This document shows positions 920-64,000 of a stretch of 64,000 bases of DNA, piece after piece. The notes under the pieces were generated by a model that worked only from the letters and a program-made list of their open reading frames with translations, did not search any database and was not told the origin of the DNA. Numbering within the stretch: position 1 is the first letter of the stretch; each line of letters opens with the position of its first letter. A program made the translations under genes and the position numbers. Source of the DNA: Planctomycetota bacterium (lineage in GTDB: Bacteria; Planctomycetota; Planctomycetia; Pirellulales; Pirellulaceae); assembly GCA_014238905.1 (NCBI GenBank), contig JABAAE010000012.1:104156-168155 (forward strand). Reading direction: 5' to 3'.

Positions 920-1666
920 TCTCGCTGGGTAAGGATGTTGCGGTTTTGTTAAAATCGGCATATTTCCTACTCTTTCTCAAACCTATTGAACGCTGAAGTC
1001 CATTTTTCCTTAATTTCAGTAGCCAAACTTGGGGTGAATCCAGTGTTGGGAGTCATTTTCAGCATTTGGGAACGTAAAAACATTTCGAGAAAAAATTTGA
1101 GGATTGCGACGGAGTTGCCCTACCCTTTTTGGGGGAAGGGATCGTGGGTGGTATTTTTTTTCAGTTGGAATCGGAACGGTCGTTGATCCTCGTGAAGGAC
1201 CATCAAGAGCCTATTGGGCGGATTCACCTTTGGTTATCGAAACTGACTTGGTGACCCAAGGCTGAGCTTATCGGGAAAGCCAATAGACGGGCGGCGGCTC
1301 ATCGGGCCCCAAAGGGTGGTCCTTGTCAGGCGGTGATCAACTCGATAATTGATAGTTTGGGCAAGCTGAAATGGAAAAAAGGGTGGTGCATCCATTTTCT
1401 CGGTGCGGCATGAATTGATTTGCGAACCGGTTGCCCCCGGTCAGCAGGCTATTGTAATCTGATAACATGAATTTTCAGTGGGGCGTCGATTGGCGTCTCT
1501 TAAAAGCCTGTAGGCGATGTGCCCATTGGTATTAAAACACCACGGTATTTTGCAGCTTACTTTACGGCTTACTTTGTGGCGTACTGATGGGGTGATACCA
1601 CCATTTGGGTTGCGCTGCATGTGGAATTCATCTTTTGAAAGAACCATCCGAACCGAGAGAGATTCT

Positions 1667-3868
1667 ATGTCATTTCGTCCAGAAAAAATGGAGATTGAGC
1701 GACAACCCAGTGGGTTTTCTAATTGGAGTAGATTGAGGACGAGCTGGTCCCTGATGCTACTGATTGGAGTGGTCGCCGGATTCCAAAACAGAGCCGTCTG
1801 TCAGGACACCTCCAAGGCAAAACTGGATCCGGTTGCCCAAACAAAACAGGTGGCGGTCGACGACGATCCGGATGCTCCCTTTCAGCGTCGATTTGACGTG
1901 CCGGATTTTCCCAAGGGTGTGGAATGGCTCAATACTCGAAAGCCGATCAGCAAGCTTGATCTCAAAGGGAAATTTGTAATTCTGGATTTTTGGACCTATT
2001 GCTGCATCAACTGTATTCACGTTCTCCCGGAGCTTAAGAAGCTTGAAAAGAAATACCCCAACCGATTGGTTGTGATTGGTGTCCATTCAGCCAAATTTGA
2101 AAATGAAAAGGACACCGAGAATATTCGTGAGGCAATCCTGAGATATGAAATCGAACACCCGGTCATCAACGACTTTGACCATAAAGTCTGGGACCAGTTT
2201 TCAGCACGGAGCTGGCCTTCCCTCAGGATGTTGGACCCGGAAGGGAAATTGGTTGCCGGACATTCTGGCGAAATTCGGTTTGAAGATCTTGATGCCTTTC
2301 TGAAGCCGGTTTTGGACTATTACGATAAAAAGGGTCTGCTTGATAAGACACCGCTTCGTTTTGAATTGGAGAGCGCAAAAGAAAAACCGACACCACTTCG
2401 ATTCCCCGGAAAAATTCTAGCAGATGAAAAAGGTAAACGGCTGTTTATTACTGACAGCAACCACAACCGGATCGTTATCACTGACCTTGATGGAAAATTG
2501 ATGGGGACGATTGGCTCGGGACAAATTGGCAACAGCGATGGCGATTTTGATACTGCCGAATTTGACCATCCGCAGGGAACGGTCCTCAACGGCGATCTTC
2601 TGTACGTTTGTGATACGGAAAACCACAATTTGCGGAAAGTCGACCTGGTAAAGAAAACGGTAACTACTATTGCAGGAAGTGGGAGACAGGCTAAACGTGC
2701 ATTTCAACACTTCAACCAAGAAGAAACTGGGTTTTCCCAGTGGAGCGGTGATCCACGCAAAACAGAGTTGAACAGTCCCTGGGCATTGTGGATTCACGGT
2801 ACTGATTTATATATCGCGATGGCTGGGCCGCATCAAATCTGGAAGATGCCGCTGGATGAATCGACGATTGGGCCGTTTGCCGGGAATGCGCGTGAAGATA
2901 TCGTAGACGGGGCATTGTTGCCATCGGAACCCTACGGATTAGGCGCCGCATCTTTTGCTCAGCCAAGTGGACTGGCAAGTGATGGCACCTGGTTATACGT
3001 AGCAGACACCGAAGGAAGTTCCATACGAGCGGTTCCCTTCGAAGGTAACCAACCGGTTAAGACCGTGGTGGGAACAGCGGAACAGCCGAGCGGGCGTTTA
3101 TTCATTTTTGGCGACAAAGACGGACAACGAAAGGATGTTCTCCTGCAACATGCCATTGGAATTGCCTATTCTGATTCTCGGCTTTTCGTTGCCGACACCT
3201 ACAATAACAAGATCAAAATTGTTAACGCGAAAACGGGGGAAACCAGAACTTTGGCGGGGACTGGACAGCCCGGTTCAGATGATTTGCCAGGCACGTTTGA
3301 CGAACCTGCCGGCTTGGCGTTTGCCAACGGCACGCTTTACGTTGCCGATACCAATAACCACCTGATTCGAAAAGTTGATCCCAAATCGGGCAAAGTATCG
3401 ACATTGACCATCGAAGGCCTGCAACCGCCGATTGCTACGCCAAACACCGGTCGCTCCAAAATCCATTACCCCAAGGCCTCCATTGCCAAGGTGACCGGTA
3501 CCGCAAGACCTGAAAAAGGAATGGTGCGATTTTCAGTTCAACTGAACTGGCCCGACGGTTGGAAAACCAACGAGCTGGCACCGATGGGATATTATGTCCA
3601 TTTCCCTGGGGACCAAGGGGTGGTCGATCGATCACAGGTTTCGACCGAAAAAATTAAGTTGACCTCACCCAGCGACCAATTTGATATCTTGCTACCAGTC
3701 AAGGCAGACGGTCAGGACAAGTTGCGTATCGAAATGCCCTTCTTTTATTGCCAAACCGGGGATACCGGTGTTTGCAAATTTGGTCAGGTTGCGTTTGAGA
3801 TTGATCTGACTGTGTCGGGCTCTTCAAAAATGGATCGGGTGCAACTTGAATTCGATGTCACCGACTAG
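1667..3868 (+). CDS. Thioredoxin-like (redoxin, CC-x-x-C) plus NHL-repeat protein, NHLRC2-like architecture, with signal peptide
   Basis: ORF 1517..3868; the likely start is the internal ATG at 1667 (MSFRPEKMEIERQ...SLMLLIGVVAGFQ). Redoxin-like block FVILDFWTYCCINCIHVLPELKKLEKKYPNRLVVIGVHS. Five NHL-type repeats (LFITDSNHNRIVITDLDG, LYVCDTENHNLRKVD, LYVADTEGSSIRAV, LFVADTYNNKIKIVN, LYVADTNNHLIRKVD). Beta-rich C-terminal domain. Confidence 0.75.
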   Translation: MSFRPEKMEIERQPSGFSNWSRLRTSWSLMLLIGVVAGFQNRAVCQDTSKAKLDPVAQTKQVAVDDDPDAPFQRRFDVPDFPKGVEWLNTRKPISKLDLKGKFVILDFWTYCCINCIHVLPELKKLEKKYPNRLVVIGVHSAKFENEKDTENIREAILRYEIEHPVINDFDHKVWDQFSARSWPSLRMLDPEGKLVAGHSGEIRFEDLDAFLKPVLDYYDKKGLLDKTPLRFELESAKEKPTPLRFPGKILADEKGKRLFITDSNHNRIVITDLDGKLMGTIGSGQIGNSDGDFDTAEFDHPQGTVLNGDLLYVCDTENHNLRKVDLVKKTVTTIAGSGRQAKRAFQHFNQEETGFSQWSGDPRKTELNSPWALWIHGTDLYIAMAGPHQIWKMPLDESTIGPFAGNAREDIVDGALLPSEPYGLGAASFAQPSGLASDGTWLYVADTEGSSIRAVPFEGNQPVKTVVGTAEQPSGRLFIFGDKDGQRKDVLLQHAIGIAYSDSRLFVADTYNNKIKIVNAKTGETRTLAGTGQPGSDDLPGTFDEPAGLAFANGTLYVADTNNHLIRKVDPKSGKVSTLTIEGLQPPIATPNTGRSKIHYPKASIAKVTGTARPEKGMVRFSVQLNWPDGWKTNELAPMGYYVHFPGDQGVVDRSQVSTEKIKLTSPSDQFDILLPVKADGQDKLRIEMPFFYCQTGDTGVCKFGQVAFEIDLTVSGSSKMDRVQLEFDVTD

Positions 3869-23468: not shown

Positions 23469-23585
23469 ATGTCGACAATCGGACAACAGAATCAGTTACC
23501 CAAAGCGGTGGAGGGATGGTAGGCTGTGTCTTATCGGTGAACCAGACGCTTCGGTTAATCAATGTTTTACCAGGGAACGACGGAA

Positions 23586-24602
23586 ATGCAGAAATCTCCC
23601 AAGCGACTTGCGTTGCTTTTTATTGTTTTGGCTGGCGTCGGGTTGGTCGTTTGCAGTACGGCGGACTTCCGAAACAGGCTCACCGGCGATGATACTCCTA
23701 AAATGATTTGGTATGGAACATTAGAGGGCGGATTGGCGGAAGCGAAGCGATCCGATCGTCCAATTCTGCTCATTTCTGCTGCCCCACAATGTCAAGCTGT
23801 TTCGGGAGTTTGGTGACCTGGCAAACAAAAAATGGACAGTAGTTACTGGACCAACCAAGAGGTGATCAAGGCGAGCCGCGATTTTGTTTGCATTCGTTTA
23901 GCAACCTATGAAGATAAGAAAGAGGTTGAGTTTCTGAAGGGGATCTTTCGAGGGCGATCTGGAGAACTGGAAAACACAACGTTTGTCATCCTGGATTCCG
24001 ATGGGAAGAAACGGCTCTCCCGAAGCGGTCGTTCACCGGATTTCGCTTTTCGCGGCGCCAATGCATTTGTCACCGGTTTAAACAAGATTGCCAAAGAAAA
24101 AAATAGCGCTGAAAAGAGATTTTCTGATGCCAACTTACCTTTGATAAAGAATGTCGACTTGGCCTTGAATGTGGCTTCGTGTGACCAAATTCAATTAGTC
24201 GTTGTGGTTGGCGAAAATGAACAGAAAATGAATGAGCTTGCTGAAAAGGCTGCTCCCTTGGCTTGGAATGAAAAGGTAGGCGGACAGTTTCTATTTGCCA
24301 AGACCTGTGATCCCAAAGAACTCTTGCCTATTAACGGAAAGCCGCCGGTAAATGGTTTGATCGTGGTCGAGCCTGGGCAGTTTGGTATGACTGGAAAGAT
24401 TGTTGAGTCTTTTGGAGAAAATATTGAATTTGATCGGTTCGTTGAAAAACTGGCGGAACATTCGGCGACGTATGAGGTTTTGAAAGACTATCGTCAGCAC
24501 GTCCAAGCCGGTATTCAACTGGGAATCAAATGGGAATCTGAAACGCCTGTGACGGATCAAGGATCGTTGCGAGCGGTAGAGAGGTCACGCGGCGGGCGGT
24601 AA
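23586..24602 (+). CDS. Periplasmic thioredoxin-like protein interrupted by one in-frame TGA (23814..23816): candidate selenoprotein, or disrupted gene
   Basis: ORFs 23562..23816 and 23832..24602 are in the same frame with 15 nt between them. The likely start is the ATG at 23586 (MQKSPKRLALLFIVLAGVGLVVCS). Read-through gives ...IWYGTLEGGLAEAKRSDRPILLISAAPQCQAVSGVW-TGA-PGKQKMDSSYWTNQEVIKASRDFVCIRLATYEDKKEVEF... The pattern of N-terminal W..LEeAl.eAK...kPILL, then Cys region, then ..EV.....FV.I.L is thioredoxin_7/DUF255-like. Confidence 0.5.
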
Positions 24603-24762
24603 TTCGAGGTGGATTTTTTTCGGAATCCTCCTCTCGGTGATACCGATTGTTTTCTAACGTTACTGGATTAAAGAGACGGTTACGGAAATAAAGAAGGCGT
24701 CAAAGGATTAATTGGAAGTTGGGTCAGTCTCAAGGTTTGGGCAGTTTTCTAAAGGAAATAAA

Positions 24763-25746
24763 ATGAAATTAAGTTGGATGGTTTTTTGCTTGGTCTTTTC
24801 CTTAGCGGCCGCGGATTCAATTCTTGCTCAGCCTGGTGGCCCGGGTGGTCCTGGTCAGCAAGGTGGCCGCGGTGGACCTGGTTTTGGTGGTCAAGGTGGT
24901 GCCGGTGGTCAGCAGCGTGGTGGTCAGCAGCGTGGCGGTCAGCAGCGTGGCGGTCAGCAGCGTGGCGGTCAGCGTGGACCCGGTGGTCCTGGTTTTGGCG
25001 GCCCCGGGGGTCCTGGTTTTGGTGGTCCCGGTGGTCAAGGTGGTCGCGGTTTTGGCGGTCCCGGTGGTCAAGGTGGTCAAGGTGGTTTTCGCCCCTCGCC
25101 CAGCGTATTAATGGGAGCATTGGATGCGAATCAGGACGGTCAAATCTCCAAAGATGAGCTGAGAAACGCAGCGGCTGCCTTGGCAAAGCTTGACAAGAAT
25201 AGAGATGGAATGTTGACCGCCGAAGAATTAGTTCCAGCTGGTATGCAGGCCGGTGGTGGTCGCGGTGGTCCTGGTCGCGGTGGTCCTGGCGGCGGTGGTC
25301 CTGGTGGTCCTGGCGGCGGTGGTCCTGGTGCTGGAGGTCAAGGCGGAGCCGGTGGGCAGTTTGACGCACAGCAAATGGTCGACCGTTTTTTTGCGAATAT
25401 GGACAAAAATAATGACGGAAAATTGAGTAAAGGTGAAGTGCCCGAACGGATGGCAAACATGATCGGTCAAAATGACGCCAATAAGGATGGCCTTGTGGAT
25501 AAAAAGGAAATGATGGCTGGGCTTGCAAAAATGGCAGGTGGTCGCGGTGGTCCTGGTGGTCAAGGTGGTCGCGGTGGCGGACCAGGTGGCGGTGCTGGTG
25601 GTCAAGGTGGTCGCGGTGGCGGACCTGGGGGCGGACCTGGGGGCGGTGCTGGTGGTCAAGGTGGTCGCGGTGGCGGACCTGGTGGAGCCGGAGCCGGAGG
25701 CGGTGGCGGTAAAGGCGGCGGTGTGCGAAGACCCAATTTTGGGTAG
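24763..25746 (+). CDS. Secreted glycine-rich protein with four EF-hand calcium-binding loops
   Basis: ORF 24712..25746; the likely start is the ATG at 24763 (MKLSWMVFCLVFSLAAADSILA; RBS aaaggaaataaaATG). EF-hand loops: DANQDGQISKDE, DKNRDGMLTAEE, DKNNDGKLSKGE, DANKDGLVDKKE. The spacers are GGPGGQGGRGG/GGQQRGGQQRG low-complexity tracts. Confidence 0.75.
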   Translation: MKLSWMVFCLVFSLAAADSILAQPGGPGGPGQQGGRGGPGFGGQGGAGGQQRGGQQRGGQQRGGQQRGGQRGPGGPGFGGPGGPGFGGPGGQGGRGFGGPGGQGGQGGFRPSPSVLMGALDANQDGQISKDELRNAAAALAKLDKNRDGMLTAEELVPAGMQAGGGRGGPGRGGPGGGGPGGPGGGGPGAGGQGGAGGQFDAQQMVDRFFANMDKNNDGKLSKGEVPERMANMIGQNDANKDGLVDKKEMMAGLAKMAGGRGGPGGQGGRGGGPGGGAGGQGGRGGGPGGGPGGGAGGQGGRGGGPGGAGAGGGGGKGGGVRRPNFG

Positions 25747-28276: not shown

Positions 28277-28945
28277 TTACTTCGACAGTAACTCAGCCTG
28301 CTGCACCAAAGCTTCGATTTCGTAATCGGCATCTAGTTTGGATTCCGGACCTTTAAACCTGATGATCCCCTTCGCGTCGATCAGCATCGCATACCCGGCT
28401 GCGTCGAGTTCAAGCGTGTCTGCGATATCAGGTATTCCTTGATCCTCGCGACTGGAGAATGATCTCCAGGAGACTTCGTATTTTTTTTCCATGGATGCAA
28501 CATCTCCACCATCCTCGCCCATGTTGACACCAAGTATGACGAAAGGACGACCTTTGTACTTCTTAACGAGCGACCGCTCGTGTGGAATACTGTCCACGCA
28601 AGTCGTTCACCAACTGGCCCAAGTGTCGAGCAATATGACTTTGCCCTTATAGTCAGCCAGTGAGAATGTTGTGTTTTGGGCATCGCTTCCAGAAACATCA
28701 GGTAACCTTTGGCCGGGTAAGTTGCCCTCCGGCGTCGTTGCAGCGTCGAGTTCGCCAAACGGTAATTTCGATACTATTTGCTGGCTGGCTGGGTCTTTGG
28801 TTGCCAAGCTTTTTTTTTGCCCCTTGTCTTCTCCACTGCCGCAACCGTTGAACCCAAGAGCTGTGATGATGGCAATGCCGTACACCAAGGGTCCCATCCG
28901 TCTAAAGAAGTACCAGGAAGTTTCATGGTTGTGGTTGTTGATCAT
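28277..28945 (-). CDS. TlpA/ResA-like thiol:disulfide oxidoreductase lipoprotein with TGA at the active-site position (W-A-S-W-U-T-T-C): candidate selenoprotein
   Basis: ORFs 28607..29071 and 28277..28597 share a frame. The codon at 28607..28609 is TGA, and three codons later the second ORF begins. Joined: ...FSLADYKGKVILLDTWASW-TGA-TTCVDSIPHERSLVKKYKGRPFVILGVNMGEDGGD... This matches the WCxxC...P(+8)...KY...LGVN spacing of the TlpA/ResA/CcmG family. The likely start is the ATG at ~28945 (MINNHNHETSWYFFRRMGPLVYGIAIITALGFNGC). Confidence 0.7.
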
Positions 28946-62898: not shown

Positions 62899-64000
62899 TT
62901 ACTGGCCAATCCTGGCTTCCTTCAATTGAAACGGCCGATCGACGGGGACGTTTTCAAATGATTGCAGTTTTCCGTCGGGCCACCTGACGGTTAATTCATC
63001 AACGACTGTAGCGTTGCCGATACCAATCAAGAGTTGAGCGGGGGACAAACCCATGCAGCCGTTGGCTGGAAACAGATCGCGAATAATCTTCCTCGGGCCC
63101 ACCTTTAAAGTGACTCGTGACCCAATTGCGGGCCGATTGGATTTGGTTCCTTCCAGCTCGATCGAGAGAAATCGATTCGTTCTGGGGAATTGATTGGAGA
63201 ATAATCTCAGGCTCCCACCGCCTGCCGAACCGACCAATAGATCGGGGTACCCATCCTGATCGAAATCGGCCCCGACGGCACTGCGACTGTCAGAGTCGAT
63301 ATCGACGTCTGATGCGAATGAAACATCGAAAAATTTGTGGCCGTCGATGTTTAAATAAAATTTGTTGCGCTCATAGGCGCTCAGGTTTTCGCCTGCCTTG
63401 GTGATGGCGAACGGGTTGGTGGCCCAGAATTCACCAGCAGCATGATCAATATCTCCCAGGGGTTGGATTTCACAGGTTCGATCGGTTGGCCGTGACACGA
63501 CGGCACGCCAGAGACACGTTCAGCCATCCGGTTTTTCACGATCGAAGCTCATGAAGCCGGTGGTCGCATAGAGATCCAGGAGTCCGTCACCGTTGAAGTC
63601 ACACATGATCGGGGCAAATGCCCAGCCCACCTCATTGACGCCGGCCTGATCGGTCACGTCCACATAACGGTTGTCACCGTCGGTTTTTCGATAGAGCCGG
63701 TTTCCTGCACAGGAGCCTTGTATTTGTGGGAAAATATCCTTGGGGTAATCTTCATCCCCGACATGAGAAATGATCCGCCTTCCCATTTTGGAATACATAT
63801 TGGCGACATAAATTTCGGTAGTTCCGTCATTATCCAGATCGCCAGTAGCAACACCCATGCTGGTTGCAAAATCGGCTGCACCGCATACCTCGGAAATGTC
63901 TTCGAATGTTCCATCTCCTTGATTGCGTAACACCAGATTTTTTGCGAAATCGTTGGCGACATAGAGATCGGGGTAATGGTCATCATCAAAATAAAGCCAA
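62899..64000 (-). CDS. ASPIC/UnbV plus FG-GAP/VCBS-repeat protein (CRTAC1-like), N-terminus beyond window end; contains one in-frame TGA (63520..63522)
   Basis: ORFs 63520..63933 and 62899..63498 are in the same frame. Joined: ...DFNGDGLLDLYATTGFMSFDREKPDG-TGA-TCLWRAVVSRPTDRTCEIQPLGDIDH... The upstream part has FG-GAP loops DLDNDGTTEIYVAN and DFNGDGLLDLY. The downstream part has FDQDGYPDLLVG and the ASPIC/UnbV C-terminus ...LTVRWPDGKLQSFENVPVDRPFQL. Confidence 0.55.

Follow-up and report, generated by a model that had tools for sequence, protein, structure and literature searches.

The window, by which we mean the whole 64-kb stretch of planctomycete DNA that was analysed, contains two forward-strand ORFs, 23562..23816 and 23832..24602, that share a reading frame and, as the earlier note had pointed out, are separated by nothing more than a TGA and five sense codons (P-G-K-Q-K). 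Our translation of the joined product, ...RPILLISAAPQCQAVSGVW-[TGA]-PGKQKMDSSYWTNQEVIKASRDFVCIRLATYED..., agrees with the one given there. Reading the TGA as a putative selenocysteine (Sec) codon yields one continuous coding sequence, with the following features (window coordinates and strand):

23586..24602, +: predicted full-length selenoprotein coding sequence of 338 codons including Sec, in a single frame, with a TAA stop at 24600..24602
23562, +: alternative ATG of the same coding sequence
23586..23660, +: signal-peptide-like N-terminal segment, MQKSPKRLALLFIVLAGVGLVVCST..., with a charged n-region ahead of a hydrophobic stretch
23709..23927, +: divergent Thioredoxin_7-type catalytic domain (Pfam PF13899), spanning the TGA
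23790..23792, +: invariant Cys (TGT), 8 codons upstream of the Sec position (C-x7-U)
23814..23816, +: TGA, the predicted Sec codon, aligned to the catalytic Cys of AGR2; a homologue with TGC (Cys) is known
23834..23852, +: SECIS-like hairpin, GGACAGUAGUUACUGGACC, with covariation across the family and frozen synonymous sites
24138..24470, +: second thioredoxin-like domain, beta-alpha-beta-alpha-beta-beta-alpha, without a redox motif
24471..24599, +: conserved C-terminal helical tail, H..H...G...G..W.[ST]E.P.TD..., its helices predicted in a structure model
24712..25746, +: neighbouring gene for a secreted protein with several EF-hand motifs

Full-length members of the family have a median length of 346 aa and share one architecture: a signal peptide, a Sec-containing Trx_7 'a'-type domain, a non-catalytic Trx-like 'b'-type domain and a tail. 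A signal-peptide-like N-terminus, scored as a 12-aa window with a mean Kyte-Doolittle hydropathy of at least 1.8 located before the catalytic domain, lies upstream of the TGA in 73 of 76 full-length members. The earlier note had likened the layout of the first domain to Thioredoxin_7, and a domain of this type does span the TGA: PF13899 scores 22.1 bits (E=1.6e-4) on the whole window protein and 26.9 bits on the window domain alone, against a gathering threshold of 27, and it matches 24 of 24 family members at E<0.01 (best 5e-7). The second domain, covered together with the tail by a structure model of the 256 aa that follow the TGA, resembles the non-catalytic b-type domains of PDI; invariant residues of the tail are H223, G231, W234, P239 and D242 (alignment A1). 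The large number of invariant charged and polar residues (D, R, T-Y-E, E-N-T) is more in keeping with a specific enzyme than with a general thioredoxin, and the function of the protein would probably lie in periplasmic redox chemistry, acting on thiol-disulfides or peroxides.

Sequence and profile searches of the PDB returned weak matches (E about 0.1), all of Thioredoxin_7 type: AGR2, AGR3, TXNDC12/ERp18, p19 and a disulphide isomerase. All the alignments shown pair the Sec, after an 8-residue gap, with the catalytic Cys of the AGR2 motif C-P-H-S; they put the redox residue at the N-terminal end of helix alpha-1, following strand beta-1, and that strand is encoded upstream of the TGA. As had been proposed from the sequence of the window, the TGA thus occupies the position of the first (nucleophilic) active-site Cys, and no resolving Cys follows it (U-P-G-K, compared with C-P-H-S in AGR2). 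Position +3 is Lys in 99% of loci, which leaves no CxxC, UxxC or CxxS partner. The sole conserved Cys nearby is the one at -8, present in 100% of the 80 loci described below with both Cys codons in use, and situated in a family-specific 8-residue insertion relative to AGR2. This Cys(-8) is a candidate resolving residue that could form a selenenylsulfide with Sec. Neither this Cys nor the existence of an entire family had been recognised in the earlier note.

We scanned species-representative genomes and translated related DNA in frame upstream of the annotated start, which gave 80 loci with a locatable site (79 related genomic loci and the window). The orthologue alignment advocated in the earlier note gave a uniform answer: all 80 loci have the TGA at the same position, embedded in the invariant peptide PILL.SAAP[QH]C-x7-U-PGK[QR].(M)D. 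The relatives, from 80 independent assemblies, are 38-63% identical to the window at the protein level, and in all 80 loci the sequence continues in frame 0 without indels and with fixed spacing. Synonymous variation is accompanied by strong purifying selection on each side of the TGA. Upstream of it, Pro at -10 and Gly at -3 are 100% conserved while four codons are used for each, which indicates that the N-terminal part is translated in frame 0. A second match to the pattern C-x7-*-PG[KY], found in two loci (L045 and L077), lies in a non-coding frame and is due to chance.

The carriers are nearly all Planctomycetota MAGs (Pirellulaceae, Mariniblastus, Aureliella, Isosphaeraceae, Gemmatales and others), and complete genomes with the gene include OZ253677.1 (Mariniblastus sp.) and OY829846.1 (Aureliella sp.). 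Three loci come from MAGs labelled Armatimonadota (L066), Burkholderiales (L079) and 'bacterium' (L080), and one database match, P0354, is labelled Actinomycetota. Family members outside Planctomycetota-labelled bins could reflect binning contamination or horizontal transfer.

The earlier note had also described a 'weak hairpin', CAGU-AGUU-ACUG (23837..23848), downstream of the TGA; this proves to be the apical part of the larger stem at 23834..23852, a SECIS-like element conserved throughout the family. In its family form the hairpin comprises 7 bp, starts 17 nt 3' of the TGA and has the consensus GGACAGG-AGUUU-CCUGUCC; the stem is recovered by RNAalifold. By pair count, 96.5% of cells are paired in this register as compared to 30-57% in slid registers, compensatory changes occur in 5 of the 7 pairs (both sides changed in 29 cells), and no more than 2 of 500 shuffles reach the observed value on any of five measures, with none doing so on three. 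Through these compensatory changes, residues encoded by both arms are replaced (D-R...L-S gives way to D-Q...W-S, for example), so protein constraint alone would not yield the covariation. Moreover, third-position entropy collapses over codons +7 to +12, where synonymous sites are frozen: Arg is encoded by AGG in 46 of 51 loci and Ser by AGT in 75 of 75, although elsewhere in the gene CGN and TCN do serve for Arg and Ser.

We scored the hairpins with a published bSECIS model (PMC13188914), which specifies a loop of 3-9 nt, a stem of at least 4 bp, a G in the first two loop positions and an MFE of -7.5 kcal/mol or lower. The SECIS search that the earlier note had called for succeeded at the level of the family, where 77 of the 80 loci display all four properties at a spacing of 24-25 nt (median family MFE -10.8 kcal/mol), and failed for the window, where Rfam at gathering thresholds has no match, a result that we do not count against a SECIS, and where the hairpin, at -5.7 kcal/mol the weakest of the 80, displays three of the four properties and misses the -7.5 threshold. 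The window copy pairs in a shifted register, in which CAGU/ACUG form the upper stem around an AGUU loop and GG(A)/(GA)CC the lower stem; beneath the upper stem, an A.A mismatch and a bulged G interrupt the pairing. The low stability of this copy arises because the window has ACC (Thr) where most loci have UCC (Ser). Taken alone, this hairpin is indistinguishable in stability from shuffled sequence, so it is the family, not the window copy, that carries the case for a SECIS.

The conserved TGA, the Thioredoxin_7 domain that spans it and the SECIS-like hairpin support the Sec reading of the TGA that the earlier note had entertained. We conclude that 23586..24602 is very probably one gene, encoding a secreted (periplasmic) two-domain thioredoxin-fold selenoprotein in which UGA 23814 is recoded to Sec. 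On these sequence grounds we would expect selenium actually to be incorporated at UGA 23814.

Non-Sec forms of the protein were sought with a site-spanning profile in which U was replaced by C, taking the best 120 matches of each search. Among the matches listed, four proteins read through the site (P0265, P0266, P0267 and P0268). One of these, P0266 (locus L081), has Cys (TGC) and is the sole Cys form among the matches listed; its hairpin has been lost, and the residues at the hairpin position are IDNGWLL as compared to the usual MDRSFLS. Judged by its sequence, a Cys form without the hairpin is the classic Sec/Cys pattern. The locus (L081:791-1180, from JGI 3300043529) is on a 1.2-kb contig that ends inside the gene. 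P0265 (L082) has Arg, encoded by CGA, one base off TGA, next to a perfect hairpin; since the gene is truncated after 141 aa despite that hairpin, it is likely to be a recent decay product or pseudogene, or else an assembly or sequence error. It occupies L082:4001-4426 in GCA_019751515.1, a Gemmataceae MAG, and adjoins a gene on the opposite strand. P0268 is a second Arg form, and P0267 is scrambled at the site. Among the matches listed, the non-Sec forms thus amount to one Cys and two Arg, set against ~830 clusters of N-terminal stubs.

None of the genes selA, selB, selC and selD was found in the 64-kb window, in which ARAGORN finds no tRNA and hence no tRNA-Sec, and a Pfam scan of ten large window ORFs detected no SelA, SelB or SelD. 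The confinement of the search for Sec machinery to the window, the two database variants with Arg (CGA or similar) and the weakness of the window hairpin leave some room for a UGA that is read through as a near-cognate Trp, Cys or Arg codon with stimulation by the hairpin, or a hairpin that regulates termination to give two isoforms. We regard this explanation, which survives best among the alternatives to Sec, as improbable: the UGA stands where the fold has its catalytic Cys, 77 of 80 loci have a hairpin whose geometry and G-containing loop fit a SelB-type bSECIS, the hairpin is gone from the Cys form, one of the Arg forms is a truncated gene, and a candidate gene for a selenoprotein of the standard UxxC type is also present in the window. 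Reassignment of TGA throughout the genome is ruled out, since TGA is the normal stop of 7 of the 30 long ORFs in the window, hemC and transketolase among them.

The UxxC gene, a second selenoprotein candidate, encodes an exported TlpA/ResA-like redoxin on the reverse strand (28945..28277), with a TGA at 28609..28607 in the context ...ILLDTWASW-U-TTC..., NCBIfam matches to TlpA (5.7e-13) and ResA (1.5e-12), and a hairpin, GUGGA-CAGUAU-UCCAC, that begins 9 nt past the UGA. It provides indirect support for Sec decoding by the organism, and complete selA/B/C/D sets occur in a Rhodopirellula-related strain, Gemmata and Isosphaera (PMC4807772). The hairpins of the TlpA/ResA-like gene and the main gene have the 8-mer GGACAGUA in common. 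Since the earlier note called the main gene a second Sec candidate, the TlpA/ResA-like gene is probably the first one it had in mind.

Other genes of the window also deserve mention. An FG-GAP/UnbV_ASPIC gene on the reverse strand (62899..64000), which extends past the window end, has an in-frame TGA at 63522..63520 (KPDG-U-TCLW) with Pfam domains on either side; no convincing hairpin was found at that TGA (z = +1.3). The gene matches ASPIC/UnbV FG-GAP proteins that were named as selenoprotein candidates for planctomycetes P1 and P2, with Gly at the corresponding position of the closest NCBI match (Kim et al. 2016, PMC4807772, S9 Table), and it adds to the indirect support for Sec decoding by the organism. 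At 1517..3868 (+) lies a gene for a large exported-type redox protein with a Thioredoxin_8/AhpC-TSA domain and NHL repeats. Neighbourhood clustering over the 80 loci revealed no conserved redox partner or operon; the sole recurrent neighbour, encoded immediately downstream in 17 of the 80 loci, the window among them, is the secreted EF-hand protein, which is rich in Gly, Arg and Gln and may be a functional partner or may simply reflect lineage synteny.

Current databases hold the family in pieces. A homology search with the joined protein gave 434 clusters, the best 120 of which are all of ~256 aa, comprise the post-TGA part only and start with 'MD.S[FY]'; when 1.84 billion cluster representatives were searched exhaustively with a profile, 613 matched, the best 150 all from residue 1 or very close to it. 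Conversely, a profile of the N-terminal part alone gave 827 clusters, the best 120 being stubs of 41-77 aa in which the match ends just before the TGA position. Together, these N-terminal stubs and C-terminal fragments indicate that gene callers split the entire family at one place. P0001, which is near-identical to the window protein, is named 'thioredoxin family protein' by NCBI and annotated with 256 aa.

If the TGA were a true stop, the locus would give two products, a secreted peptide of ~80 aa and a cytoplasmic protein of 256 aa from the ATG at 23832. Current gene callers and the NCBI annotation of P0001 adopt precisely this arrangement, the databases contain hundreds of the corresponding stubs and fragments, and the window does have an ATG 5 codons past the TGA, but in 15 of 80 loci Thr, Asn, Gln or His replaces this 'start' Met at +6, and the ten or more codons that follow in these 15 include no start codon in frame, so that the downstream ORF cannot be an independent gene. 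Nor does a true stop accord with the remaining evidence, as it would split the Thioredoxin_7 domain, including beta-1 and the active site, would make a 256-aa product without a signal peptide and first strand, and would leave a covarying, conserved hairpin without a role, all in the face of a frame and spacing that are fixed in 80 of 80 loci. We consider two separate products very unlikely.

A frameshifted, mis-sequenced or decaying pseudogene, including the two compensating indels that the earlier note had weighed because the +1-frame peptide KLFREFGDLANKKW looked like a thioredoxin helix, is scarcely credible even though the +1 frame is open over a short stretch in 77 of 80 loci and the relative L082 looks decayed (CGA at the site, truncation after 141 aa), for 80 independent assemblies at 38-63% identity to the window agree on one continuous, conserved, indel-free frame 0 under strong purifying selection either side of the TGA, the a6 run suspected earlier is not an indel site, and the +1-frame peptide, at a column identity of 0.61 compared with 0.78 in frame 0, is conserved no better than nucleotide conservation alone would predict.

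For the single recoded gene, then, we propose the following mechanism. SelB and Sec-tRNA would recognise the SelB-type hairpin inside the coding sequence and Sec would be inserted at UGA 23814, after which the protein would be exported to the periplasm. There, Sec could make the nucleophilic attack on an oxidised substrate such as a disulfide or peroxide, Cys(-8) could resolve the intermediate as an intramolecular selenenylsulfide, and a periplasmic reductant would recycle the latter. By analogy with PDI a-b architectures, binding of the substrate or of a partner is probably the task of the second thioredoxin-like domain and the tail.

Curated selenoprotein models in NCBIfam release 20 yielded no match above cutoff: the top match, the Trx7/PDZ (seleno)protein NF041199, scores 11.6 bits against a cutoff of 300, NF045694 (TsoB) scores 10.5 bits against 805, and there is no other at E<=10. 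A 2026 inventory of 119 prokaryotic selenoprotein families and subfamilies includes no W-U-P-G-K or C-x7-U family and has Thioredoxin_7 only as Trx7/PDZ with CxxU. Neither the family nor Planctomycetes are mentioned in the GOS, ISME 2016, deep-Sep and BSepDB papers, which cover the literature in part, so that an earlier description is possible. The missing NCBIfam match and the absence from the inventory and these papers make it probable that the family is uncatalogued. The deep-Sep authors themselves state that methods needing Cys homologues may miss selenoproteins without them, and a family with almost no Cys forms fits this blind spot. Taken together, we somewhat favour the view that this is an undescribed, near-exclusively Sec-containing family, largely of Planctomycetota, with a new C-x7-U-P-G-K active site on an AGR2-like Thioredoxin_7 domain joined to a non-catalytic thioredoxin-like domain, and, as part of the same view and with the same modest preference, that the SECIS hairpin also dictates the M-D-R-S-F-L-S of the helix adjoining the active site.

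These findings correct a systematic mis-annotation, in which halves of one gene stand as separate database entries in hundreds of cases and the product annotated as 'thioredoxin family protein' is missing its signal peptide, first strand and catalytic residue. They add a widespread family to the planctomycete selenoproteome and bear on how selenium use is estimated for marine and sediment communities. If Cys forms are indeed nearly absent, this would mean that there is a periplasmic chemistry in which Cys cannot substitute, and would explain why discovery methods based on Sec/Cys pairs missed the family, a concrete case of the blind spot in pipelines that require Cys homologues. Families that almost never swap Sec for Cys are rare and are useful for learning what Sec can do that Cys cannot; in addition, a SECIS hairpin that tightly overlaps the codons next to the active site shows cleanly how an RNA element can constrain the sequence of a protein.

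How does the family compare with known systems? GPx-type selenoproteins carry one Sec, placed at the N-terminal end of helix alpha-1 in a thioredoxin fold, and take their resolving Cys from elsewhere, not from a CxxC. The likeness is a mechanistic analogy only: Pfam and NCBIfam gave no GPx sequence match, and the GPx catalytic tetrad was not identified. NF041199 is likewise bacterial and Thioredoxin_7-like, but has its Sec second, in CxxU, whereas in our family the Sec comes first and no PDZ domain was detected. TlpA/ResA-like and Prx-like UxxC selenoproteins resemble the family in that they are exported thioredoxin-fold proteins, use Sec as the first, nucleophilic residue and have a bSECIS within the gene; they differ in having the resolving Cys at +3 and abundant Cys homologues, as against U-P-G-K, Cys at -8 and almost no such homologues, and the family belongs to a different thioredoxin subfamily.

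The best, though weak, PDB matches are to AGR2, AGR3 and TXNDC12 (ERp18), eukaryotic members of the PDI family of Thioredoxin_7 type that have the same fold. With its single-Cys motif C-P-H-S, AGR2, like our family, has no second Cys of the CxxC type, and both are secreted or located in an exported compartment. In contrast to AGR2, the family has Sec in place of Cys, Lys in place of Ser at +3 and an 8-residue insertion with an extra conserved Cys, adds a second thioredoxin-like domain and a C-terminal tail, and is bacterial, largely from Planctomycetota. At E about 0.1, the sequence tie to the AGR2 group is one of fold or family level, not of orthology. The gene therefore probably represents an uncatalogued new family of a well-known kind, the bacterial thioredoxin-fold selenoproteins with an intragenic SECIS, and what is unusual in it is the active-site layout, the near-obligate Sec, the distribution largely within one phylum and the two-domain architecture.
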